DNA from: Minisyncoccota bacterium
GTDB taxonomy: Bacteria; Patescibacteriota; Minisyncoccia; JBAYJV01
Direction of reading: 5' to 3'
Length of the DNA: 64,000 nt
NCBI GenBank assembly: GCA_041664925.1
Contig: JBAYJV010000001.1
Span: forward strand, 56,121 to 120,120
Shown here one piece after another: positions 2,945 to 61,085 of the stretch (the stretch's first letter is position 1; each line of letters begins with the position of its first letter). The notes below the pieces were generated by a model. That model ran no database searches and was not told where the DNA came from. It saw only the letters and a program-made list of their open reading frames with translations. Both the position numbers and the translations under genes were made by a program.

Positions 2945-5900
2945 TTATTGATTATTTTCTTTTTTTACTTGATCCTTTTTCGCGACCTTTTTGCCAACAA
3001 GCTCAACGGAAAAACCAAGACTTCTGAGCTCATTGAGTAAGACATTGAAGGATGCTGGAATGTTTGGGCTTTTAATTTCTTGTCCCCCGATAATAGACTC
3101 GTAAGCTGCTGCTCTGCCCAAAACATCATCTGATTTAATAGTAAGCATTTCTTGAAGAGTATATGCTGTCCCATAGCCTTCTAACGCCCATACTTCCATT
3201 TCACCAAATCTTTGGCCACCAAACTGAGATTTGCCTCCGAGAGGTTGTTGGGTAATCAAAGAATAAGGACCAATTGAACGCATATGAATCTTGTCGCTTA
3301 CAAGATGATTAAGTTTCATCATGTAAATTTGACCAACTGTACTTGGCTGACCAAATTCTTTACCTGTCCTTCCGTCGCGAAGTTGGAATTTACCGCTTGG
3401 TGAAAAACCTTGATCTGTTAAAGATTTTCTAATTTCTTCTTCAGTGATACCGGACAATGACGGAGTTAAAATTCTGCAATTCAAAGATTTTGCTACCATA
3501 CCCATATGGGTCTCAAGAATTTGTCCGATATTCATACGAGATGCAACTCCAAGTGGATTTAAAACTATATCAACTGGCGTACCGTCTTCTAAATACGGCA
3601 TATCCTCAACTGGCAAGATTTTGGAAATAACACCCTTGTTTCCATGACGTCCAGCTAATTTATCTCCAGCTTCAATCTTTTTAAATTGAGCGACTTCAAC
3701 TTGAATGCTTTTAATAACACCCGATGATAATTTATCTCCCTTATCCTGAGAGAAAACACGAACACCAATGACTCTTCCTTTTTTACCATGCGGAAGGGTT
3801 AGCGAACTATCTTTAACATCTCGGGCTTTATCGCCAAAGATTGATCTCAATAATCTTTCTTCGGCCGTTAAATCAGTTTCTCCTTTTGGAGAAATTTTAC
3901 CAACTAAGATATCTCCTTGTTTAACTTCAGCGCCAATTCGCACAATACCTTCCTCGTCAAGATCTTTAAGTCTTTCTTCTCCAACATTTGGAATGTCAGG
4001 CGTAGTAATTTCAGGACCAAGTCTTGTGTCACGGACATCTACCGTAAAATCTTCGATATGAATTGAACTGAAACGATCATCGCGAACAACCTTTTCTGAA
4101 ATAATTACCGCGTCTTCAAAATTGAATCCTTCCCATGACACAAAAGCAACCAAAAGATTTTGACCAAGCGCCAAAGTGTCTTTATCAATAGCTGGGCCTT
4201 CAGCGATCACTTGCCCTTTAGTAATTTTATCGCCTTTTCTTACAAGAGTTCTTTGATGAATGCAAGTATATTGGTTTGATCTTCTAAAGTTGGCGAGATG
4301 ATATTCTTTATTCTTTTTTGTTTTATCGCTTAAAATTACAACCTTGCTAGCATCAGCCTCAATTACCTTTCCCGATTCATCAGCTACCAAAATCATACCT
4401 GAATCAAGAGCAGTTCTTTTCTCCATCCCCGTTCCTACTAAAGGCGCCTGAGGATTAATACACGAAACAGCTTGGCGTTGCATATTTGAACCCATCAAAG
4501 CACGGTTTGCATCATCATGCTCCAAAAAAGGAATTAATGATGTCGCAACTGAAATTGATTGATTGGGAGCGACATCCACAAGATCAACTTTACCAACTTC
4601 AATTATTCCTGGTTCTGATTTTATGCGCGCCTCAATTTTTTTGTTTTTAAATTTACCTTCGACATCACGAGGTTCGCCCGCATGAGCAATAACATATTTT
4701 TCCTCCTCGTCCGCAGTCAGATAAACTACTTCGTCTATAACGCGTCCATTTTTAACACGATAATAAGGAGTGATTAAAAATCCATACTGGTTTAGCGAAG
4801 CATAAGTTGAAATATGATTGACTAGTCCGATATTGGGACCTTCTGGAGTTTGAATCGGACAAAGGCGTCCATAATGACTTGGATGAACATCACGAACTTC
4901 AAAACCAGCCCTTTCTTTCGTAAGACCACCTGGACCCATAGATGAAACACGACGCTTATGTTCAAGTTCCGCCAAGGGATTGACTTGATCCATAAACTGC
5001 GATAATCGAGACGAAATGAAAAATTCCCGCACAACGGTGGCCAATGGTCTAATATTGATAAGTTGGGCGGGTGTAAGTGTATATAAATCAAGGGTGCTCA
5101 TTCTATCTTTAATGATTCTAATCATACGAGCCAATCCAACCTGAACTCGGTTTTGCAAAAGTTCGCCAACGCATTTAACGCGGCGATTGCTCAAATGATC
5201 AATATCGTCAGGGCGCGCCTGAGGATTTTGATTGAGTTTAATAATTTCCTTAACAATCAAAACAATATCGTTGATTGAGAGAATTCTGTCGTCAAAAGTA
5301 ACTTTCTTTGTTTTGTCGGTCTTACTGCTTCCCGGCTTGTGCAATCCAAGTCTTTGATCAAGTTTCCAGCGACCAACTTCAGAAATATCATATCTTTCAA
5401 AACTGAACATCGCCTTCAAAAGACTTTTAGCATTATCAACTGTTGCCAATTCACCTGGACGAATTCTGCGATAAACTTCGATCAATCCATCGCCCTGATT
5501 ATTAGTAATATCTTTTTCTAAAGTCTGGCCAATATAATCAACTTCTCCGCCGAGTAAAACATCTCTAAAAACTTCTTTAACATTTGCCATTGAATCAATG
5601 AAGGGTTTTTCCCCTTCTCTAATACCAGAAAATGCTTTCAAAAAGGCAGTCACAGCAATCTTTCTTTTTCTGTCAACTTTAATGTAGAGAACGCCGTGGT
5701 TATCTGTTTCAATTTCAAGCCAAGCGCCGCGATTCGGAATGATCTTGGCTCCGAAATAATGACGGCCATTTTCATATCTTGAATTAAAAAACACGCCAGG
5801 TGATCTAGCGAGTTGAGAAACAATAACACGTTCAACGCCATTTAAAACAAAAGTTCCGCGATCGGTCATCAGCGGAAAATCTCCCATAAAAACATCTTGC

Positions 5901-6235
5901 TCTTTAATTTCGCCTGTTTTTTTGTTTTTTAAACTCAGTCTTACTCTAAGAGAAGCCTCGTGAGAAGCATTGTGCTCTTTGGCCTCAACTTCATCGTGTT
6001 TCGCTTTATCCAAATGATAATCTAGGAAAGAGAGTTCTAACTCCTTTCCTGAATAATCAGTAATTGGCGAAATTTCATCGAAAAGATCTCGAAGTCCCTT
6101 TTCAAAAAACCATTTATATGAATCTAACTGAATTTCAATCAGATTAGGAAGAGGGAGACTTTTTTTGGGAAAGTTTGAGAATTTTTTCTCTTCCATTGTT
6201 TGGGTGATTAACAAACAAAAGACCCTCGCCTTCAA
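2945..6235 (-). CDS. rpoB: DNA-directed RNA polymerase subunit beta
   Basis: 1096 aa ORF containing the conserved rpoB blocks [38 protein letters not shown] and NMQRQAV. Confidence 0.95.
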
Positions 6236-6543: not shown

Positions 6544-7068
6544 TTATCCGGCCAACTCATAATAAACCGCATGCCCTGTCTTTCCTATTTGGCGAATTCT
6601 CCCTTGTTTTTCTAAAATATTCAAATAGCGAACAACTGTCGCATCCGACTTTCTTACAATCTTTCTAATTTCCTGATTAGTCAATCTTCTTTTTTCGGCC
6701 AATGCCGCCACAATTTTCTCAAGTTGTTTTTCTTTCCTCATGGCAATTTTTTGCTTGGCCTTTTCTAAAAGTTGGGCAATTATATTTTGTCCTGAATTAT
6801 TTTCTATCGGAGCAGGCGCATCAGTTGGCAAAATTGAATTCTCATTAATCACAGGTACTTCATTTATCTCCGGACTTTTTTCTTGGATATTTTCAGCTGA
6901 TGTTATTTCTGATTTCGGCTCAATCGCTACTTCCTGTGAATTTTCGGGTGAAGTCGGCATTGATTCTTGTTGAATTTCTGGCAAAATCTCCGAACTATTA
7001 TCTTTTATTGGCGCTTGATCTTGTATCTGGTTTTGCGCTTGATCTTGTCCTAAATTTTCTTCACTCAT
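6544..7068 (-). CDS. Winged-helix DNA-binding protein with an acidic, Q-rich N-terminal region. Candidate regulator.
   Basis: C-terminal ~70 aa KQLEKIVAALAEKRRLTNQEIRKIVRKSDATVVRYLNILEKQGRIRQIGKTGHAVYYELAG has a wHTH-like pattern. Its leader contains one copy of the GGAGGCTGAGCCTCC palindrome. Confidence 0.5.
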   Translation of the reverse strand: MSEENLGQDQAQNQIQDQAPIKDNSSEILPEIQQESMPTSPENSQEVAIEPKSEITSAENIQEKSPEINEVPVINENSILPTDAPAPIENNSGQNIIAQLLEKAKQKIAMRKEKQLEKIVAALAEKRRLTNQEIRKIVRKSDATVVRYLNILEKQGRIRQIGKTGHAVYYELAG

Positions 7069-21545: not shown

Positions 21546-23255
21546 TCAATTCTCTTCCCGTTTTTTCATCGCTGCTTGAAGTGCTTCTTTTAAGGCACTC
21601 TTGTCAGGCTCAGATTTTTCCAACCTGGAATTAGTCATTCTTGGGCCGGTTTTCTTTATGTCTTCTAGTTTATCTTTTTTTGCTGAATCAATTTCTTTTG
21701 TTTTTGCTTCTGGCGCTTTAACTTCCTCGGTAATCTTTTTCTCTAGTTCAGGCCTAGTCGAACTTGGACCGACCTCGTTTTTACGATCGCCTTTTGGAAT
21801 TGGAGGAAGTTCGCCGCTTCTGATTTTTTCAAGGCAACTATCGCAATAAACTGGTCGGCGATTGTCAGGCTTAAAAGGAAGTAAGGCTTTGCCACCACAA
21901 TGAGCACAGATTGCTTCGTGAAGTTCTTTACCTTTCTGAATTGCCTCAGATTCTAGGGTTTGACTGCCATAACCTGCCCATGAAGCGATTTTCATTTCAA
22001 CTTCATCTCTTTGAGTAGCATAACGTTCACGGCTCAATTTTATAACTGTTTCGCGACAAGATTTTTCTTCTTTGGGATATGGCGGAAGGGTCGTCGCCGA
22101 GAATGGGCGAGACGCCATGCCGTCAATCATTAATTTCAAATAAATATCGTATTTTGCCAAACCAACCAAATCAGTCGCGGTAAATTCTGGCATAAGCTCT
22201 CTTTCGAGAAATTCGGCATCTTCGGCACCCACTCTAAAAGTAATTAGTGTGCCGACATTGCCAAAAACTGCGTCTCTGACTTCTTCTTCCAGTTGCGCAA
22301 TGTATTGGTGAGCCAAAATAAGATCTAGGCGATATTTTCTTGCCTCAGACAAAATATTTGCAAATGATTCTGTGGCAAAGTTTTGAAATTCATCGACATA
22401 TAAATAAAAATCTTGTCTTTCTGATTCTGGAACATCAACCCGACTCATTGCTGCCAATTGAAGTCTCGTAATCATCATTGCGCCCAATAAAGCAGAATTA
22501 TCTTCACCAATAAGACCTTTAGATAAATTCATAATCAAAATCTTTCCCTCATCCATGACTTGGCGCAGATTTAGTTTTGATTTGGTTTGACCGACAATAT
22601 TACGCACCAATGGACTTGTGAGAAATTGTCCGACCTTGTTTTGAATTGGCGCTACCGCTTCAGCTAAAAATCTGTCAGGATATTTTTGGAACTCATCTAT
22701 CCAAAAACTTCTTACAACCGGATCCTGAATTTTTTCAATAACTTTGCCTCGGTATGTTTTATCAACAAGCATTCTCATAATGCCAAGCAAGGTGCTATTG
22801 GGATATTCAAGAAGCGCCAAAATCGCATTTCTTAAAAGATATTCCAATCTGGGACCCCATGAATCGGCCCATATCTTCTTAAAAACGCCCACAAGACCAG
22901 AAGCAACTAAGTGCCTTTGTTCTGGAGATACTTTTTCAATAACATTAAGCGCGATCGGAAAATCTAGATCGCTGGGATTAAAATAGATGACATCGTTAAC
23001 TCTGGATTTGGGAATAAAATCAAGCATTTTGTCAGCAAATTCGCCGTGAGGATCAACAATTGCCATGCCATGTCCCGCCCTAATATCAGCAATTGCCATA
23101 TTTTCTAAAACAGTGGTTTTTCCAACACCGGTTTTTCCAATAACATAAACATGACGGCGGCGGTCGTCAATTTTTATACCGAATTTACGGCGTTCATTCC
23201 TAAAATTTGTTTCTGCAAAGAGGGCAATTTTATCAATCATTGTTTTTTTATACAA
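21546..23255 (-). CDS. P-loop ATPase of the HerA/FtsK/VirD4-TraG (DUF87-like) superfamily with a C-terminal zinc ribbon and K/E-rich tail
   Basis: Walker A YVIGKTGVGKTT, DPHGEF and a Walker B-like LYVDEFQNF. A CxxC...CxxC pair CAHCGGK...CDSCLEK near the C-terminus. Confidence 0.5.
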   Translation of the reverse strand: MYKKTMIDKIALFAETNFRNERRKFGIKIDDRRRHVYVIGKTGVGKTTVLENMAIADIRAGHGMAIVDPHGEFADKMLDFIPKSRVNDVIYFNPSDLDFPIALNVIEKVSPEQRHLVASGLVGVFKKIWADSWGPRLEYLLRNAILALLEYPNSTLLGIMRMLVDKTYRGKVIEKIQDPVVRSFWIDEFQKYPDRFLAEAVAPIQNKVGQFLTSPLVRNIVGQTKSKLNLRQVMDEGKILIMNLSKGLIGEDNSALLGAMMITRLQLAAMSRVDVPESERQDFYLYVDEFQNFATESFANILSEARKYRLDLILAHQYIAQLEEEVRDAVFGNVGTLITFRVGAEDAEFLERELMPEFTATDLVGLAKYDIYLKLMIDGMASRPFSATTLPPYPKEEKSCRETVIKLSRERYATQRDEVEMKIASWAGYGSQTLESEAIQKGKELHEAICAHCGGKALLPFKPDNRRPVYCDSCLEKIRSGELPPIPKGDRKNEVGPSSTRPELEKKITEEVKAPEAKTKEIDSAKKDKLEDIKKTGPRMTNSRLEKSEPDKSALKEALQAAMKKREEN

Positions 23256-36341: not shown

Positions 36342-36361
36342 TAACATTTGCCTGCCTGCCG
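36342..36361. repeat. 20-nt hairpin repeat cctgcctgccggtaggcagg (family member)
   Basis: Near-perfect palindrome. Other members lie at 36816-36835, 36880-36899, 39775-39793, 41410-41429, 57368-57387 and 61034-61054. Confidence 0.6.
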
Positions 36362-36470
36362 GTAGGCAGGAATTTAAATATTTAAATCCGAATGACCGAA
36401 ACTGTTTTAGATTTAGAATTTTTAGAATTAGATATTGTTTCGTATTTCGTACTTCGAATTTCGTGCTTAA

Positions 36471-36707: not shown

Positions 36708-36857
36708 TATAGTAAAATCTACAAATATATTCTATTCTAATCTTTTTTTATCCTTAAATCAAACCCCGTGATTTTACAATATTTATTTGCTTGCCCGTCC
36801 GTAGTCCCGGCATGCCCTGCCTACCGGCAGGCAGGATTGACCCGTTAAAACGAAATA

Positions 36858-36995
36858 AATATCCTCCTTCGTCCCTTGGCCTGCCTATCGGTAGACAGGG
36901 CTACGGAAGGATTATTGATTGCATATTTCTTCACTTCGTTCAGAAACGCAATCAATAAAAAAGAAGGGGGGTACCGCTCTGGTACCCCCTCTCGT
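36858..36995 (-). other. Composite 3' module of gene 37003..37653: terminator, then the 11-bp inverted repeat ttattgattgc...gcaatcaataa, then a structured motif AUCCUUCCGUAG-hairpin-CGAAGGAGGAU
   Basis: The same three-part arrangement occurs at 55811-55918 downstream of 55924..56232. Confidence 0.5.
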
Positions 36996-39733: not shown

Positions 39734-39812
39734 TTATTGAAAATTTTAAATTATGAATTCTTCCAAAATTTTGCCCGCCTACCGGCAGGCAGGCATTTTG
39801 CACTTTTAATTT

Positions 39813-41338: not shown

Positions 41339-41448
41339 AAATATCGTCCTCCTTTAGATTATCTTAGCGAACAAGGTGAGCTTTAGATAATTTTAAGTCC
41401 TGCCGAAGTCCTGCCTGACGGCAGGCAGGCTTAACGAAGGCGGACAAT

Positions 41449-51023: not shown

Positions 51024-52004
51024 TTAATCAAAAATAAGCCCAATGCGTTTCCTCAATTTATAAGTATTCCCATGACTCAATAATCCTCGATAAGAAATAA
51101 TTGTTTGCGGTTCAGGGTAATTCTTTAACTTTCTAATAATTTTTCTTTTGGTTTTTGTTCTAATTTGCCGATGATATGGAAAGTGTATCCATCCTAAAAA
51201 ATCTATACCAGAAGCATGTGTTTTGATAAACATTTTTTCTTCGCGCAAATTTAATCCAAGTTTATCGTGTAAAAATTCACGGATACTTAATAGCAAAATA
51301 TCAAGATACTCTTTGTCGTCGGATAAAATTACAAAATCATCGGTATAGCGAATATAATATTTTACGCGAAGCTCTTGTTTTAAATACATATCAAAATCAT
51401 GCATATAAATATTGGCAAAAAGTTGTGAGATAATATTTCCTAAAGGCAAACCGATATTTGGACGAGTAACATAAAAACTTGCCAAAACTTTCTTTATCAG
51501 CCACATAACATTAGAATCTTCAATGTGTCTTTCTAGTATTTCAATCAATATTTTGTGATCAATGCTGGCAAAAAACTTCTTAATATCACATTTAAGCACA
51601 TAACAATTTCGCGAATTATTTTTTGATACTTTTCTCGCAAAATACCTAATCCTATTGAGCGCTTTATGGGTTCCTTTTTTCTTACGGCACGAATAAGAAT
51701 CATATATAAATTGCTTATCAAAGTACTCATATAATTCTTGGTACATCAAATGATGCAATAAACGATCGCGCACGGTTGCTTTATGAATAATGCGCGGTTT
51801 TGGATCGGAAATGCTAAACTTAAAATAAGGGCCATGCTCGTATGTTTGAAAAGCAAGAGAGCGATAAAGATCAACTATATTATCGGCAAGATTAACTTGA
51901 AAAATCATTACATCTTTTCTGTGTTTTTTGCCTCGTAAAAAACATTCCCAAGCTACAAGCAAATTTTCAATCTTTATGATATTCTTGTATTTATGGTTAA
52001 ACAT
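51024..52004 (-). CDS. Diversity-generating retroelement reverse transcriptase
   Basis: RT motifs: YVLKCDIKKFFASIDH; LPLGNIISQLFANIYM, which carries the DGR-hallmark LGxxxSQ; and YIRYTDDFVIL (YxDD). Start taken at MFNHKY. Confidence 0.8.
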   Translation of the reverse strand: MFNHKYKNIIKIENLLVAWECFLRGKKHRKDVMIFQVNLADNIVDLYRSLAFQTYEHGPYFKFSISDPKPRIIHKATVRDRLLHHLMYQELYEYFDKQFIYDSYSCRKKKGTHKALNRIRYFARKVSKNNSRNCYVLKCDIKKFFASIDHKILIEILERHIEDSNVMWLIKKVLASFYVTRPNIGLPLGNIISQLFANIYMHDFDMYLKQELRVKYYIRYTDDFVILSDDKEYLDILLLSIREFLHDKLGLNLREEKMFIKTHASGIDFLGWIHFPYHRQIRTKTKRKIIRKLKNYPEPQTIISYRGLLSHGNTYKLRKRIGLIFD

Positions 52005-52020
52005 AAATTCGCCTATATTT

Positions 52021-52407
52021 ATGATGAAACATACATTTGTTTGCGATAAATCTCCTCTTGTGCTTGCAAAAACTAAAGAAGCATACTGGATGTGGCACAA
52101 AAACTTAGTCAATATTAACCGCCTTGATCGATACACAATTGGTTCAAAAATTGATGGTATTTTTTTATCATTATTAGAATTAATTTTTAGAGCCAGTTTT
52201 GCGTATGATAAATTTGAAAAACTTTCTTTAGTTTCGCAAGCCATAGTAAAAAACGATCTCTTAAAATTCTTTTTACAAATTGGCTGGGAACAAAAAATAA
52301 TTGATCATACAAATTATGGTTTACTAATATTGTTTTTAGACGAAATCGGCAGAATGCTTGGGGGCTGGAAAAAGAATCTACGCGAAAAAACTCCTGCCAA
52401 TAAATAG
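52021..52407 (+). CDS. Accessory variability determinant (Avd)-like four-helix-bundle protein (128 aa), inverted relative to the RT and TR
   Basis: The C-terminal DEIGRMLGGWKKNLREK parallels Bordetella bAvd EVGRILGSWIARVNRK. Size and helical pattern fit. It lies between the TR and the RT. Confidence 0.6.
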   Translation: MMKHTFVCDKSPLVLAKTKEAYWMWHKNLVNINRLDRYTIGSKIDGIFLSLLELIFRASFAYDKFEKLSLVSQAIVKNDLLKFFLQIGWEQKIIDHTNYGLLILFLDEIGRMLGGWKKNLREKTPANK

Positions 52408-55206: not shown

Positions 55207-55433
55207 ATAGACTAATTCTATCAAAAAAAACCTCCCCTTGAAAGAGGGGGGAGATAGAAGATAGCCCCGCACAATTCTTGCTAAGCTTAAGTGAAGCTAG
55301 AATTTAGGGAGTCCCGTGAACCTTCGTGTATTTCAAGATAAACAAAGTAAAATATGCGGGGTCCTCGTAAAACCAATGATTCGCTAAGAGCTCATCAGGT
55401 TTTACGGGAAAGTTAGAATGCTGAATACAAAAT

Positions 55434-55923: not shown

Positions 55924-56232
55924 CTAACTTCTTTTGCGATGAAAGAACTGCGACAAAGCAAAACGATGATGTTTTTCAGGCAATCTTGGTAATTCAGAAA
56001 CTTGACCAGTGGCAAAAGCGATCGCCTGACGCTTTATTTCTTCACATTTTTCATGCGACATACCCAATTCCTCGAACATATAACTTAAGGAATCTGTAAC
56101 TAATTCAGGCAAAGGTCGCCCTACTCTTTTTGCAAACATACTATCTAAAGCCATTTGGTCCCCAGCCATGCCGTCATACCACACATACTTTCTTTTTCCT
56201 CCAATTCTTTTGAGCCACCTGAATAACCTCAT
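55924..56232 (-). CDS. Hypothetical small protein (102 aa), GC-rich island gene
   Basis: AAAGGAGG before the ATG. The structured motif atcctcccgtagttctggcgagccagaacgaaggaggat lies in its leader. Confidence 0.4.
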   Translation of the reverse strand: MRLFRWLKRIGGKRKYVWYDGMAGDQMALDSMFAKRVGRPLPELVTDSLSYMFEELGMSHEKCEEIKRQAIAFATGQVSELPRLPEKHHRFALSQFFHRKRS

Positions 56233-56371
56233 ACTCTGCCTCCTTTGATCGCTTTGATGTACTAATTATAAGTTACTATTTGAAACATGCATCCTCCTTC
56301 GTTCTGGCTCGCCAGAACTACGGGAGGATACAAGAAAGCGTAAATTCTTTTATCATTAACGCTTTCTAGTA

Positions 56372-56444
56372 CAGGGGCGGCAGGACTTGAACCTGCAACC
56401 ACTGGTTTTGGAGACCAGTACTCTGCCAATTGAGCTACGCCCCT
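56372..56444 (-). tRNA. tRNA-Trp (CCA)
   Basis: Cloverleaf aggggcg/cgcccct acceptor, anticodon loop cuCCAaa, T-loop ttcaagt. No encoded CCA. Confidence 0.85.
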
Positions 56445-56479
56445 TCAAAGTAATGAGTCTTGCTCATTACTATGGTTTG

Positions 56480-56638
56480 CTATTTTTTTGTTTCTTTGTG
56501 CAAAGTGTGTTTTCTATCCCAAGGACAATGTTTCTTTAATGATAATTTTTCTTGGATAGTTTTTTTGTTTTTTCGAGTATTATAATTTACTCTTCCGCAC
56601 TCCGTACATTTCATTTTAACAATACTTTTTTGTGGCAT
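56480..56638 (-). CDS. rpmG: 50S ribosomal protein L33 (52 aa)
   Basis: [52 protein letters not shown] carries the L33 signature. It is below the six-frame ORF length cutoff. Confidence 0.8.
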
Positions 56639-56642
56639 GTTT

Positions 56643-57095
56643 TTAATTAATTAATTTCCATTCTCCAGTTTTTAAATCTACTTCATAAATCGACACATTG
56701 GCTCCCATGTATGGATCGCTACCGGAAACTAATTTCCACATATCCTTTCCCGAGTGGAAGAAACCGATAACTTGCCATAGATCATCTTTTTTTTGAAGTA
56801 ATAATTGTCTAGTATTTTGATTATCTCCATACTCAACATACAAACGAGATTTATCTATAAGACTAAAACGGATCAGATGCCAACTTCCACCAAGTACCGG
56901 CTTTTCTGGAGAGAGTTGATTGATATTCTTTGAGATGGAATCTATCGTTTCTTTTGTTAGAGGAACACTCACTGAATTGTCTTCGCGAAATAGCGTTGAC
57001 TCTGGAGTTTCTTTTTTTATCCTACTTAAACAATAGATTGTCCCGCCAATAACCAAAATAATAATAATCAAGATAACAATATTTCTTTTTCCCAT
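56643..57095 (-). CDS. Membrane-anchored hypothetical protein
   Basis: N-terminal TM segment [14 protein letters not shown]. Confidence 0.4.
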
Positions 57096-57150
57096 TCTTT
57101 TTTTACTACAAGTATGAGCCTACTGAGGATTGTTTTTTCTTATTTGGAAC

Positions 57151-57223
57151 AAGCCCACGATCGGGATTGGACCGATGACCTCCCCCTTACCAAGGGGGTG
57201 CTCTACCAACTGAGCTACATGGG
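57151..57223 (-). tRNA. tRNA-Thr (GGU)
   Basis: Acceptor gcccatg/cgtgggc (one G-U pair), D-arm gctcagttggtagagc, anticodon stem ccccc/ggggg with loop uuGGUaa. Confidence 0.75.
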
Positions 57224-57230
57224 CCCTTGT

Positions 57231-57313
57231 ATGGGTAGGGAGGGATTTGAACCCCCGAAGCCATAAGGCGCGAGATTTACAGTCTCGTCCGATTGACCAC
57301 TCCGGCACCTACC
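57231..57313 (-). tRNA. tRNA-Tyr (GUA), long variable arm
   Basis: Acceptor gggtagg/cctaccc, anticodon loop cuGUAaa, type II variable arm, T-loop ttcaaat. Confidence 0.85.
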
Positions 57314-57350
57314 CGTTTAAGTAGCTAAGACTTTATCTAATATATAAATA

Positions 57351-57403
57351 TGCCTCGTCCGATTGACCCCTGCCTGTCGGCAAACAGGACTCCGGCACCT
57401 ACC
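57351..57403 (-). pseudogene. tRNA-Tyr 5' fragment (acceptor and D-arm) interrupted by a 20-nt CCTGCC..GGCAGG-family hairpin
   Basis: gggtaggtgccggagt[cctgtttgccgacaggcagg]ggtcaatcggacgag is otherwise identical to the 5' 35 nt of tRNA-Tyr. Confidence 0.5.
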
Positions 57404-57406
57404 CAG

Positions 57407-57447
57407 TTGGAGCCGTCCCTGAGACTCGAACTCAGAACCTACTGTTT
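57407..57447 (-). other. 3' half of a second tRNA-Thr(UGU)-like gene (anticodon-stem 3' strand, T-arm, acceptor ggacggc, encoded CCA)
   Basis: aaacagtaggttctgagttcgagtctcagggacggctcca. Its acceptor is complementary to the 5' half at 57607-57640. Confidence 0.5.
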
Positions 57448-57473
57448 ATCCCGCACCACGCTTAGTAAGTCCA

Positions 57474-57545
57474 AGCCGAGAGTGAGAATCGAACTCACAA
57501 CCTACTGTTTACAAAACAGTTGCTCTACCGTTGAGCTATCTCGGC
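57474..57545 (-). tRNA. tRNA-Thr (UGU), intact copy
   Basis: gccgaga/tctcggc acceptor, D-arm gctcaacggtagagc, anticodon loop uuUGUaa, T-loop ttcgatt. Confidence 0.8.
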
Positions 57546-57606
57546 GAACTTAGCGAGTGCGGGATCCCGCACTGCTAATCCGCAGAGCGGAAAGCCAGCG
57601 CTGGGA

Positions 57607-57640
57607 CAAAACAGTTGCTCTACCTTTGAGCTAGGACGGC
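57607..57640 (-). other. 5' half of the second tRNA-Thr(UGU)-like gene (acceptor gccgtcc, D-arm, anticodon-stem 5' strand)
   Basis: gccgtcctagctcaaaggtagagcaactgttttg. It is separated from its 3' half by ~160 nt that contain the intact tRNA-Thr. Confidence 0.5.
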
Positions 57641-57645
57641 CCATT

Positions 57646-58896
57646 CTATTTGCCTATTTTATCTTCACAATCCTTGAGTAAATCTTTTATTTTTTGATCT
57701 CCAGACCCAAGTTTAATCGCCATCTCAAAAGATTCCTTGGCATATTCAAACTTATCTTGATTGTAATAAATTTTCCCTAATCTCTTATACGCTTCAATGT
57801 TTTTAGGATCTTCAACAATCTGAGCTATAAGCTCATCTTCAATTTTTTGAATAGTTTCTTGAGATACCTGATCGCTTGGAGGATTAATATTTTTAACTTC
57901 TGGTTTGGCAATTTCGACAATTTCCTTTTCTATCTCCTCTTCCACTTCTCTCTCAATTTTATCGACTATATTCTCTTCCTCTGGTTTTATTGCTTCTACA
58001 GGAATTTTCTGCTCAACTTCCTTCTTTTCTCCACTTACAATTTCTGACTCAGCCTCAATTACATGTTTCTTTTCTTCCGCTTTTCCTGTCTTTCTTAAAA
58101 GTTCTCCTAAAAATATTTCAGGCTTAAAAGTAATGTTTCTTTTCTGGCTTAATTGTTTTTTAAGCTTTTTGTCTTCTTCTGACAACACAACGCGAACTTT
58201 AATTTTCTTTACTAACTCTCGAAAAAGAATTAATGCTTTTTTTATTTCTATTTTTTTAGCAATTTTTTTTACCCCACCAGCAGATCCTTTTGCGGCAAAT
58301 TCGATTCCTTTTCTGGTACGACTAAGCAGGTTGAGGCCCTTTTTAGAAAATGCCACTAAAATTTCTTTCGATTTGTCGTCTATTTTTCCGTTATTCTTAC
58401 CAAACTTTTTAAATAAACTTTTTTTAGCTTCTTCTATTGGAACAACTTCTTTTTCAATTTTCTCTTCCATTAGTTCATTTTCTTTTTTCTCTTGATCATT
58501 TTCTATTCTGGTTGTTATAAAATCTATGTTTTGCTTTTTTGAAAATTTCTTTTTTAAACTTCTAAAAACTTTTTTTAAAGATCTTCCGACAAAGACAACT
58601 ATTTTCTTTACCCTTTCCCTTAAAAACATAAAGACTTTCCTAGTTATTTCGCCAATTTTTTTAATTTTTATTTTTGCAAAAAAACTTAAGATTTTGTTTT
58701 TATCTACCGATTTAATCTTGCCAAAAACTTTCTTTGTGACTACTTTTGTGCTTTCAAACATCTTCTCAACTGGCTTCATTGAAATCTCAGCAGCATTTAA
58801 ATCTTCTTCTTTGACCTTATTCCATTTCTGTCGATAAAGGTAAACAAAATAGACCACTCCTATTACCAGGACGATATAGAGAATAATTTCTAGCAT
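57646..58896 (-). CDS. K/E-rich membrane-anchored protein with a C-terminal TPR-like repeat
   Basis: N-terminal TM, a long charged low-complexity region, and a C-terminal AYKRLGKIYYNQDKFEYAKESFEMAIKLG. Confidence 0.4.
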   Translation of the reverse strand: MLEIILYIVLVIGVVYFVYLYRQKWNKVKEEDLNAAEISMKPVEKMFESTKVVTKKVFGKIKSVDKNKILSFFAKIKIKKIGEITRKVFMFLRERVKKIVVFVGRSLKKVFRSLKKKFSKKQNIDFITTRIENDQEKKENELMEEKIEKEVVPIEEAKKSLFKKFGKNNGKIDDKSKEILVAFSKKGLNLLSRTRKGIEFAAKGSAGGVKKIAKKIEIKKALILFRELVKKIKVRVVLSEEDKKLKKQLSQKRNITFKPEIFLGELLRKTGKAEEKKHVIEAESEIVSGEKKEVEQKIPVEAIKPEEENIVDKIEREVEEEIEKEIVEIAKPEVKNINPPSDQVSQETIQKIEDELIAQIVEDPKNIEAYKRLGKIYYNQDKFEYAKESFEMAIKLGSGDQKIKDLLKDCEDKIGK

Positions 58897-60914: not shown

Positions 60915-61085
60915 TTTGACTAAAATTCGAAGCACGAAATCAGAAATACGAAACAAATTCAAAATTCTAATAATTAATTTTAAAAACTGTTTAGAATTTA
61001 ATATTTTTGAATTTAAATATTGTTTCGAATTTCCCTGCCTGACGGCAGTCAGGGATATTCGAATTTCGAATTTGATTGCGTACTT
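60915..61085. repeat. ~130-bp inverted-end element, copy 3, carrying an embedded CCTGCC..GGCAGG-family hairpin at 61034-61054
   Basis: aaaattcgaagcacgaaatcagaaatacgaaacaa ... ttgtttcgaatttccctgcctgacggcagtcagggatattcgaatttcg. Confidence 0.55.

Follow-up and report, generated by a model that had tools for sequence, protein, structure and literature searches.

The window analysed here, a 64-kb stretch of DNA from an uncultivated ultra-small bacterium, carries on its minus strand two tRNA-Thr(UGU) genes, one nested in the anticodon loop of the other. The outer gene, B, opens with a 5' half of 35 nt (57640-57606; positions 1-36, gccgtcc...actgttttgt), whose last base in the sequence is U36 of the anticodon UGU. 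There follow a 60-nt left flank, I1 (57605-57546), which contains ccagcgctgg and gtgcgggatcccgcac; the intact inner gene, A (57545-57474), which has a gccgaga acceptor, is called by ARAGORN and scores 75.7 bits against the Rfam tRNA model; and a 26-nt right flank, I2 (57473-57448). B then resumes with a 3' half of 37 nt (57447-57411; positions 37-73) and closes with a CCA (57410-57408), which the sequence encodes on the outer gene only. Each of these elements lies within 1-3 nt of where the initial annotation had placed it on the minus strand, and the interruption, estimated there at ~165 nt, measures 158 nt. Downstream on the same strand lie an intact tRNA-Tyr(GUA) of the bacterial long-variable-arm type (57314-57232) and an intact tRNA-Thr(GGU) (57151-57225), both found by ARAGORN and Rfam. 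The latter is the last gene of a conserved Thr-Tyr-Thr cluster that is syntenic in all relatives.

The block formed by I1, A and I2 (57448-57605) splits B between U36 and A37, and its deletion in silico gives back the anticodon loop of B exactly, as is the case for a clean insertion with no junction duplication; the two junctions have at most 1 nt in common. When joined, the halves are called as tRNA-Thr(tgt) and form a perfect cloverleaf with acceptor ends of the B type; a joined RNA would read ...ACUGUUUUGU and then AAACAGU.... The halves had been described as complementary to each other in the acceptor and unlike the intact copy there. This held, and the differences between B and A are compensatory (acceptor pairs 5-7:66-68 and T-stem pair 49:65). 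Because the two halves are identical to the intact B gene of another species, L052/L071 (35/35 for the 5' half and 38/38 for the 3' half), the split B is not a product of chance. The inner gene, for its part, is identical at 72/72 positions to the unsplit gene of L053/L054 and is probably the working gene. Thus, the central reading of the initial annotation is confirmed: one tRNA-Thr(UGU) gene is broken within its anticodon loop by DNA that holds the other. The intron-aware search that had been proposed alongside it (ARAGORN in intron mode, 0-400 nt) returned the inner gene only, which argues neither for nor against that reading.

Assembly error does not account for the nest. A 350-kb MEGAHIT k141 contig carries the identical region, and an independent Logan contig (SRR6484324) spans the 5' half, I1 and the inner gene, and so reproduces the left junction; at the right-hand junction of the window's nest, support comes from the k141 contig only. 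That the structure is a chimera, or the collapse of two tandem Thr genes, has a next to negligible chance of being correct. The region does contain repeats of 19-35 nt, and short-read Logan contigs break there, but these repeats are far below the k=141 of the source assembly, and among related genomes three data sets gave the same assembly of a reciprocal form, and a further one gave a deleted form. According to the initial annotation, tandem Thr genes in related genomes together with a chimeric or collapsed window would have spoken against the nest; no relative has such a simple pair, and nothing points to a chimera.

The same locus in related genomes

A sister species, represented by three assemblies (L052=L071=L072), carries the reciprocal nest, A5'-I1-B-I2-A3'. 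Its junctions are identical to those in the window, A is split at the same position, and the flanks agree at 81 of 86 positions. An empty site is found in L053/L054, which carry an unsplit A with the same flanks as those around the outer A of L071. A second lineage with a split B, L076, has a cassette that is missing the first 41-nt unit of I1; its flank variants match those of the window, and hence the flanks track the cargo. The comparison with related genomes suggested at the outset thus yielded a reciprocal nest, an unsplit gene and a deleted version of the cassette. The reciprocal nests show that alleles A and B have each been host and cargo, and they suggest that tRNA gene bodies are exchangeable at their exact ends.

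In relatives the outer copies are decayed: a 64-nt double hairpin is inserted into the T loop of the outer A in L071, and in the outer B of L076 the second G of the D-loop GG (G19 in our own numbering) is changed to A. More generally, relatives carry partial tRNA copies and double-hairpin inserts in T loops at this same locus. These include a fragment of B (positions 1-21) in L064 that is truncated by a MITE, and a 13-nt fragment of A (positions 1-13) followed by a 107-nt insert in both L075 and L076. In L075, a GIY-YIG ORF lies within a duplicated Tyr gene, between the intact Tyr gene and a Tyr 3' fragment, and its 89-aa product consists of the catalytic domain only. This gene is absent from the window, from all of the Thr nests and from every other locus fetched.

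A survey of 104 tRNAs across the 742 kb of fetched loci showed partial tRNA copies nowhere but in the tsf-tRNA cluster. The only matches outside the clade were a similarity between Thr(UGU) and Thr(GGU) in L013 and L064 and a repeat at a scaffold gap in L012, where a duplicated tRNA 3' end was discounted since it adjoins the gap. The cassette was seen in three lineages and at a single locus; any mobility is therefore deduced from its two target alleles and not from copy number. The lineages were found together in the same samples.

Flanks of the cassette and searches for mobile elements

In the predicted fold, I1 consists of a hairpin unit of ~41 nt (cccagcgctgg...gcagtgcggga) followed by a left inverted-repeat arm, tcccgcactcgctaagt, which abuts the inner tRNA, and I2 serves also as the right arm. 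The arms that adjoin the cargo tRNA are imperfect inverted repeats (p about 0.0008 for their complementarity), and the minimal form of the cassette, a tRNA within these arms, is ~117 bp. Relative to L052, I1 is 93% identical and I2 matches at 25 of 26 positions. The overall identity of 94% for I1/I2, compared to 84-90% in neighbouring coding DNA, could reflect constraint rather than recent transfer. I2 aligns colinearly to the A-Tyr spacer and Tyr start of L075 (p about 0.007), and resembles a Thr-Tyr spacer that runs on into the first ~15 nt of tRNA-Tyr. From this resemblance, the cassette would have begun as a copied piece of the Thr-Tyr cluster.

In the window, the termini of the two I1 units are weakly similar (p 0.24 and 0.04), and in L071 both share CCAGCAC. 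We offer it as a suggestion only that I1 may be made of tandem units, of which L076 would be missing exactly unit 1. Similarity of I1 to the 3' end of the TPR gene or to the 'u' cassette was not significant, and neither was retained as a source. A genome-wide dispersed family of GTGCRGGA hairpins was likewise rejected, the motif not being enriched beyond the cluster. As far as could be seen, the cassette is single-copy in each genome.

Of the 54 window ORFs with 110 aa or more, 50 were searched against Pfam and yielded no integrase or transposase; the other four are a 1096-aa ORF at 2945-6235, a 150-aa protein, the TPR protein and EF-Ts. The 150-aa protein is recorded under locus tag WC242_01215 as MFA6436724.1, in a MAG assigned to Candidatus Paceibacterota, and with an unchanged sequence as MFA6895818.1. 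No transposase, integrase or homing endonuclease was found in the 64-kb window, and none adjoins any of the nests. The sole enzyme of a mobile type in the window is a reverse transcriptase (51024-52244), 5 kb from the nest. Involvement of a diversity-generating (DGR) system was considered and rejected, since the differences between A and B are not adenine-specific and a template repeat was not seen. Neither exact-pattern scans of viral contigs nor blastn against phage and plasmid collections returned a match to I1/I2 or to tRNAs of the A or B type.

Miniature elements derived from IS200/IS605 cause no target duplication and have no long terminal inverted repeats; they carry subterminal hairpins at both ends and insert 3' of a fixed target of 4-5 nt. 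The cassette lies after TTTGT in both target alleles, again with no duplication, and there is a hairpin at its left end. At its right end no local hairpin forms; the sequence there pairs instead with I1, on the other side of the tRNA. No Y1 (HUH) transposase was found among the ORFs scanned in the window.

Origin of the nest

On balance, we favour the reading that a small palindromic cassette carrying a tRNA replaces, at the DNA level, the tRNA-Thr(UGU) gene that it disrupts; the nest is probably a real gene-replacement cassette and not an intron. The 158-bp cassette, composed of I1, a complete tRNA-Thr(UGU) and I2, would enter a resident tRNA-Thr(UGU) gene between U36 and A37 and destroy it, and the cassette's own tRNA would assume the lost function. 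In the window, the resident allele would be B and the cargo A. The inner gene would share the transcript of the cluster, and the usual enzymes of tRNA end processing would mature it; the outer halves would be relics. What speaks for this is that the same cassette, with the same junctions, holds the opposite allele in a sister species, is absent from another and is partly deleted in a fourth. The relic status of the window's own outer halves is a presumption argued from the relatives; the halves themselves show no damage, end in an encoded CCA and match a working gene at every position. Two of the explanations listed in the initial annotation, a recombination scar and a small mobile hairpin element, both come close to the picture obtained from the relatives, and the cassette would belong with the CCY...RGG hairpin inserts that occupy tRNA gene loops in this clade.

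Spread between related genomes would occur by recombination in the central exon segments of 28 nt and 12-20 nt that A and B have in common. Such recombination, for which a break may be the stimulus, would regenerate the exact junctions. Recombination between an outer and an inner gene, on the other hand, would give a tRNA with a mismatched acceptor stem, which would explain why nests of unlike alleles persist. It is tempting, though at present doubtful, to see in the cassette a minimal selfish gene-replacement element that spreads via the shared exon core and is locked in place by the incompatibility of cargo and host acceptor stems. No simple crossover chain could be found that derives the A-cargo and B-cargo cassettes from one another: unequal crossover, excision and re-integration of a circle, and passage through a tandem array were each considered and rejected, as all of these paths require chimeric tRNAs.

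The nest could instead be a one-off scar of repair. On this view, which we think unlikely, an ancestral Thr gene would have suffered a break, or a template switch during replication, in its anticodon-loop palindrome, and a piece of a Thr-Tyr cluster would have been copied in once. We give the same low odds to the second part of this view, in which sympatric relatives would later have produced today's forms through recombination and gene conversion, the cassette itself not being mobile. The resemblance of I2 to the spacer and Tyr start is as expected for a copied chromosomal segment, the junctions have 1 nt of microhomology, the cassette is single-copy and the lineages share samples. The breaks may have come from a nuclease such as the GIY-YIG protein encoded in the duplicated Tyr of L075; in T4, SegB, a GIY-YIG enzyme of a tRNA cluster, drives conversion of that region (PMC2330249). 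Against a repair scar, however, the step from B split by A to A split by B requires that both outer halves and the inner body be swapped at the exact tRNA ends, with just 4-5 nt of homology beyond the differing bases, and the GIY-YIG gene is missing from the window and from all fetched loci but that of L075.

An att-site scar, left when a phage or island that had integrated in the tRNA genes was later deleted, so that duplicated tRNA pieces remained, is improbable. The recurring arrangement of a 5' fragment, a short insert and an intact copy (Tyr 1-31 in the window, A 1-13 in L075/L076 and B 1-21 in L064) would suit it, and tRNA gene fragments commonly mark integration sites (PMC9897764). Nevertheless, the integrase att duplication proposed in the initial annotation does not fit the Thr nest: the junctions have no repeated core and no tRNA segment is duplicated, the ORFs scanned include no integrase, and the flanks and A/B match no phage, plasmid or viral contig. 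Furthermore, a crossover within the tRNA would give chimeric genes, and none were seen.

Slightly less probable still is a functional intervening sequence. In its first step, which we find very hard to credit, RNase P and a 3' endonuclease would cut out the inner tRNA. The companion step, to which we assign an equally poor chance, would have the outer halves held by the acceptor and anticodon stems together with a stalk of I1 and I2, then trimmed and ligated. One transcript would give two tRNA-Thr. In favour of splicing, the window's B halves are intact and compensatory, with CCA, and identical to a working gene; the predicted precursor fold juxtaposes the exon ends with the inner tRNA on a stalk (z = -6.7); and the flanks are more conserved than neighbouring genes. 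Group I tRNA introns, however, have a conserved P3-P9 core; a U precedes their 5' splice site, and their last base is G. A permissive Rfam scan gave no Intron_gpI match over 56000-58600 (E<=10, permissive filters), and a group I intron was rejected. The 5' exon ends in U, but the intervening block ends in ...GGGAU, or in ...GGGA if shifted by one, with no terminal G. A BHB intron has at its splice sites two 3-nt bulges separated by a 4-bp helix. Both the predicted fold and manual pairing are without such a bulge-helix-bulge: the predicted junction consists of an extended anticodon stem of 7 bp, an unpaired UGU opposite AU, and then 3 bp of CCC/GGG, which is a 3x2 internal loop. The interruption lies at position 36/37 rather than the canonical 37/38, and the sole change in a stalk pair, from C-G to A-A, is not compensatory. 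In relatives, L076 is missing 41 nt of I1 in addition to its D-loop change, and the outer gene of L071 has its T-loop insert. The window ORFs scanned encode no splicing endonuclease or tRNA ligase domain, and to our knowledge no bacterial pathway joins such halves into a tRNA. Thus the unusual intervening sequence, already ranked last in the initial annotation, is unlikely. It would be more surprising yet if both tRNAs of the nest were functional, in a two-in-one gene with no known bacterial counterpart, and the cassette a mobile, phenotypically silent 'tRNA intron'; just as far-fetched is the corollary that RNase P and the 3' processing nuclease would take the embedded tRNA as the signal for its own excision.

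Integrative elements that target tRNA genes are kilobases long and encode an integrase, and a 3' (rarely a 5') segment of the gene is duplicated at their two att junctions. The favoured cassette is like such elements and islands in that a tRNA gene is hit, its function would be resupplied and relic fragments remain (PMC9897764). It is unlike them in placing a whole 72-nt tRNA gene with 86 nt of flanks cleanly in the anticodon loop, with no repeat or recombinase. With group I tRNA introns, which are frequent in metagenomic genomes of unnamed phyla (bioRxiv 10.1101/2020.01.27.920355), it has in common the interrupted anticodon loop and a 5' exon ending in U. It differs in the absence of a catalytic core (Rfam) and of a terminal G, in having 86 nt of non-tRNA sequence, and in its content, another tRNA gene. 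The archaeal BHB introns, split tRNAs and transposing tRNA introns also offer a tRNA gene in pieces, intron-like sequence across tRNA genes, and flank complementarity that holds the halves (PMC10714607). Here, unlike in the archaeal systems, the host is a bacterium (EF-Ts, long-arm tRNA-Tyr), no BHB is seen, the position is 36/37 and outer copies in relatives are decayed. Hairpin and double-hairpin elements of organelles and REP/RPE palindromes are, like the cassette, short and GC-rich in an AT-rich genome, often in tandem pairs; they insert in intergenic DNA or in loops of RNA genes, and their removal from transcripts is not known (PMC2800124). None of them is known to hold a complete tRNA gene in its loop, and the cassette here is, as far as could be seen, not multicopy. 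The GIY-YIG ORF of L075 recalls SegB, a free-standing homing endonuclease of the T4 tRNA cluster, which gives one-way conversion of the surrounding tRNA region (PMC2330249); the ORF differs in that no such gene lies in the window or beside the Thr nests, and its product is only a putative nuclease domain of 89 aa.

Mobile DNA in tRNA genes usually repairs the damage by bringing the displaced end of the gene. In the nest, a complete isoacceptor gene would serve as the repair, sitting in the anticodon loop of the gene that is killed, in <160 bp and with no enzyme of its own. If mobile, the cassette would be the smallest known element to secure its retention by replacing an essential gene, and it would account for the movement of tRNA alleles among candidate phyla radiation (CPR) bacteria with small genomes. 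Because nests are missed by tRNA finders and break short-read assemblies, the tRNA complements of such genomes may be misjudged.

A tRNA-Tyr relic and a dispersed palindrome

Between the Thr nest and the intact tRNA-Tyr lies a 5' fragment of tRNA-Tyr on the minus strand (57404-57354; Tyr positions 1-31), interrupted in its D loop. The initial annotation had taken it for the start of the real tRNA-Tyr with a member of a hairpin family inserted in the D loop, and k-mer mapping bore this out: the real Tyr is matched exactly by positions 1-16 and by positions 17-31, with 20 nt between the two stretches. The insert, between positions 16 and 17, is a palindrome (57369-57388), CCTGCCTGTCGGCAAACAGG on the plus strand. 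Its family has seven members within 3 mismatches in the 64 kb, compared to none expected from shuffled sequence, and, judged from the ORF lists, the other six sit between listed ORFs. With many near-identical and mostly intergenic copies, the insert in the Tyr relic fits a dispersed palindromic repeat of the REP or hairpin-element type.

The relic and the intact gene form a 31-nt direct repeat with just 39 nt between the copies. This AT-rich spacer (57315-57353, minus strand) has no match elsewhere. The Tyr fragment is best read as the remnant of a duplicate Tyr gene, into which one copy of the 20-nt palindrome was inserted at a later time. L075 has an AT-rich spacer of 38 nt, with a near-complete Tyr copy on one side and the intact Tyr gene on the other.

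Structure of the nested tRNA-Thr(UGU) genes

Read on the minus strand from 57640 to 57151, the tRNA cluster of the window opens with the 5' half of one tRNA-Thr(UGU) allele, B (57640-57606; gccgtcc...actgttttgt), which terminates at U36. There follow a 60-nt segment, I1 (57605-57546), an intact gene of a second tRNA-Thr(UGU) allele, A (57545-57474; acceptor gccgaga), a 26-nt segment, I2 (57473-57448), and the B 3' half (57447-57411) with CCA next to it. I1, the cargo gene, and I2 thus form a cassette lying between U36 and A37 of the outer gene. After a 3-nt spacer come positions 1-31 of a tRNA-Tyr (57404-57354), with a 20-nt palindrome placed between positions 16 and 17, a 39-nt AT-rich spacer, an intact tRNA-Tyr (57314-57232), and a tRNA-Thr(GGU) (57225-57151). 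The three intact genes are the only ones called in this interval by ARAGORN and Rfam, with a tRNA-Trp called further on. When the B halves are joined, ARAGORN returns a perfect cloverleaf, tRNA-Thr(tgt) with CCA. The 10 differences between A and B are all consistent with tRNA function: they fall in three acceptor pairs, one T-stem pair, the D loop (one base), and the T loop (one base). The nested or split tRNA-Thr(UGU) of the initial annotation is therefore borne out, with coordinates off by only 1-3 nt; B is indeed interrupted in its anticodon loop, but by 158 nt rather than ~165 nt. The annotated tRNA-Tyr 5' fragment with a hairpin in its D-loop also holds, since its positions 1-31 match the neighboring Tyr gene and the 20-nt insert is precise, without duplication.

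A sigma-70-like match (TTGTGA-16 nt-TAGAAT) is present at 57643-57670 (minus strand), within the final codons of the TPR gene, and stops 2 nt short of the outer B 5' half. If this is a promoter, transcription in the window would begin within the B acceptor strand. An identical match is found in a relative, L071, 74 nt upstream of the tRNA.

An assembly chimera or collapse, which had been raised as a concern, is ruled out by the independent assemblies. A 350-kb MEGAHIT contig assembled at k=141 (ENA ERZ27249449) contains the 601-nt region without a difference, and the longest repeat involved is at most 35 nt, far below this value. Independently, a Logan contig from run SRR6484324 proceeds from the TPR gene through the B 5' half and I1 to the start of A, breaking off in the repeated anticodon arm. 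We conclude that the nest is a real, unusual structure. Its host carries bacterial markers (EF-Ts, S2, L31, L33, RF-1, and a tRNA-Tyr with a long variable arm), and because the relatives of its EF-Ts among species-representative genomes are mostly Gracilibacteria, Peregrinibacteria, and other Patescibacteria, it is a CPR bacterium. The flanking proteins have two NCBI accessions apiece, labeled Candidatus Paceibacterota.

The locus in related genomes

All relatives recovered share the gene order tsf, TPR protein, tRNA cluster, 150-aa protein, rpmG. The close lineages are roughly equidistant; their TPR proteins are 70-81% identical and their flanking genes 82-90% identical at the nucleotide level. 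None of the relatives compared has the simple tandem tRNA-Thr pair that the initial annotation had envisaged as a plainer arrangement. L053 and L054 carry one unsplit A, followed by Tyr and Thr(GGU), and L057, L059, and L013 each have a single ordinary Thr(UGU). The reciprocal nest is found at L052, L071, and L072, which share one arrangement across three assemblies and no fewer than two samples. Here I1, an intact B, and I2 interrupt A at precisely the window's site, and the DNA on either side of the outer A halves matches that around the unsplit A of L054. A 64-nt double-hairpin insert (L071 3530-3593) is lodged in the T loop of the outer A 3' half; the end of I2, 20 nt upstream, recurs as its first stem (TCCTGCACC/GGTGCAGGA), as though local fold-back copying had produced the insert.

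At L076, a contig that stops before the right side of the nest, B sits behind its own promoter-like upstream cassette and is split by a cassette with cargo A. The I1 of this nest lacks 41 nt, deleted between two CCAGCAC-like repeats, and in its B half the second G of the D-loop GG (G19 in our own numbering) is replaced by A. This is the sole exception to the 100% identity of A and of B at every occurrence, intact or split. I1 and I2 together are identical at 81 of 86 positions between the window and L071, and the flank variants follow the cargo, with T50 and C60 in the window and L076 and C50 and T60 in L071.

The cargo A of L076 is preceded by a 13-nt A 5' fragment (gccgagatagctc) and a 107-nt insert (1868-1982); the same elements precede the intact A of L075 (6280-6394), where B is absent, and the two inserts are 94% identical. 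This is another case of a 5' fragment, an insert, and an intact copy in succession. At L075, the spacer after A starts with tggact, like I2, and leads to a near-complete Tyr copy, a 38-nt spacer, and the intact Tyr, past which lie a stand-alone 89-aa GIY-YIG domain ORF (6724-6993) and a Tyr 3' fragment. Both disrupted Tyr copies have the same 39-40-nt double hairpin in the T loop (6549-6588 and 6988-7027).

In the more distant L064, an upstream cassette leads directly into a 21-nt B fragment, a 188-nt repeat element, and another, different Thr(UGU), which is intact; the repeat copy interrupts the B-type gene after position 21, and nothing of that gene remains beyond this point. This repeat family (~150-190 nt, rich in CCCGTAA/TTACGGG hairpins) is found at L064 3525-3672 and 526-637 and also in the window at 55258-55411. 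In L012, a distant Parcubacteria MAG (1995-2340), the 3' end of a tRNA-Thr(UGU) with 30 nt of flank is repeated 260 nt downstream; because a run of N separates the copies, this may be a scaffolding artefact.

The upstream cassette, which is 60-100 nt long and ends in aaaattttcta plus 2 nt, is swapped at exact boundaries, as the cargo tRNAs are. It abuts the first base of A, B, or Thr(GGU) in different genomes (L054 3588-3689; L071 3262-3317 and 3812-3878; L076 1747-1813; L064 about 3440-3512; 5' of Thr(GGU) in L055, L070, L073, and L074). It may be a portable promoter module; a simple promoter scan made no call.

Proposed origin and spread of the cassette

The cargo tRNA is enclosed by two arms, the final 18 nt of I1 and all of I2, which are imperfect inverted repeats of each other (p about 0.0008). 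In the predicted fold, these arms form a stalk with the tRNA at its tip, and the initial 40 nt of I1 fold into a hairpin of their own. I2 aligns over its full length with the A-Tyr spacer and the first ~15 nt of tRNA-Tyr of L075 (p about 0.007). I2 ends at the very Tyr D-loop position where the window's Tyr relic holds the 20-nt palindrome. By these features, the cassette resembles a segment copied from a Thr-Tyr cluster rather than an evolved intron. The small tRNA-loop inserts of the clade that we compared (the cassette, the T-loop inserts of L071 and L075, and the 20-nt palindrome) all begin CC(C/T) and finish (A/G)GG, often as two tandem hairpins, resembling the hairpin and double-hairpin elements of organelle genomes (PMC2800124). 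The L064 188-nt repeat begins CCC without the RGG end.

Two different alleles hold one and the same cassette at the same site, a third genome lacks it, and a fourth retains it in partly deleted form; outer copies are damaged in two lineages. For these reasons, we regard the inner gene as the functional tRNA and the outer halves as remnants of the gene that it displaced. Judged by sequence, the nest is best explained as a tRNA-carrying palindromic cassette replacing the gene it interrupts, and the surrounding tRNA cluster, in one Paceibacteria clade, as a hot spot for small hairpin elements. Insertion into tRNA genes with functional complementation is a known theme, to which the nest adds a new version.

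A group I intron is excluded: even at E<=10 the core goes unmatched, the intervening block does not end in G, and its non-tRNA content is just 86 nt. A BHB intron is excluded by the junction geometry. The integrase att-site duplication proposed in the initial annotation fits the Thr nest poorly, as nothing is duplicated at the junctions, Pfam scans covering 50 of the window's 54 ORFs of at least 110 aa revealed no integrase, and crossover within the tRNA would yield chimeras. No phage or plasmid source was found among viral contigs or in the phage and plasmid collections. The nest is not read as a new RNA-processing system, although the window's outer B gene, with its undamaged halves, could conceivably be spliced.

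Homologous recombination in the central segments common to A and B (28 nt on the 5' side and 12-20 nt on the 3' side) could carry the cassette into another Thr(UGU) gene and would reproduce the junctions without a dedicated enzyme. Donor DNA would be available because the lineages coexist in the same samples. A like-in-like nest would delete itself through 35-38-nt perfect repeats, whereas a nest of unlike alleles would be retained because recombination there yields only tRNAs whose acceptor stems are mismatched. Such retention would account for the absence of like-in-like nests among those observed, although with two or three cases this proves little. The breaks could be supplied by a nuclease, for example the L075 GIY-YIG protein, as SegB is reported to do in the T4 tRNA cluster (PMC2330249); among the loci compared, no GIY-YIG gene is linked to a nest. 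We found no series of crossovers that turns an A-carrying cassette into a B-carrying one or the reverse. The cargo boundaries are the exact tRNA ends, where A/B homology beyond the differing bases is 4-5 nt. It is conceivable, if speculative, that acceptor stems, by closing the tRNA gene bodies, let these be treated like other hairpin units and swapped within hairpin loops.

The Tyr relic, dispersed palindromes, and neighboring genes

Given the near-complete extra Tyr copy at the equivalent position in L075, 38 nt upstream of the intact gene, the window's Tyr fragment is probably the remnant of a duplicated Tyr, with spacers too short to prove homology. Its insert belongs to a family of seven near-palindromes (CCTGCCTRNCGGYAGGCAGG) in the 64-kb window, where none is expected by chance (36351-36370, 36816-36835, 36880-36899, 39774-39793, 41410-41429, 57369-57388, and 61034-61053). 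All except the copy in the Tyr relic lie between the ORFs listed, and by sequence they constitute a REP-like dispersed hairpin family.

About 5 kb from the tRNA cluster, a reverse transcriptase gene (RVT_1; 51024-52244, minus strand) adjoins a bAvd-family ORF (about 52021-52407, plus strand), a combination that marks them, by domain content, as a putative diversity-generating retroelement gene pair. An ORF at 21546-23255 (minus strand), with TrwB/TraG-type coupling-protein ATPase domains and a treble-clef zinc finger, is the one gene noted in the window that resembles conjugation or DNA-transfer functions.
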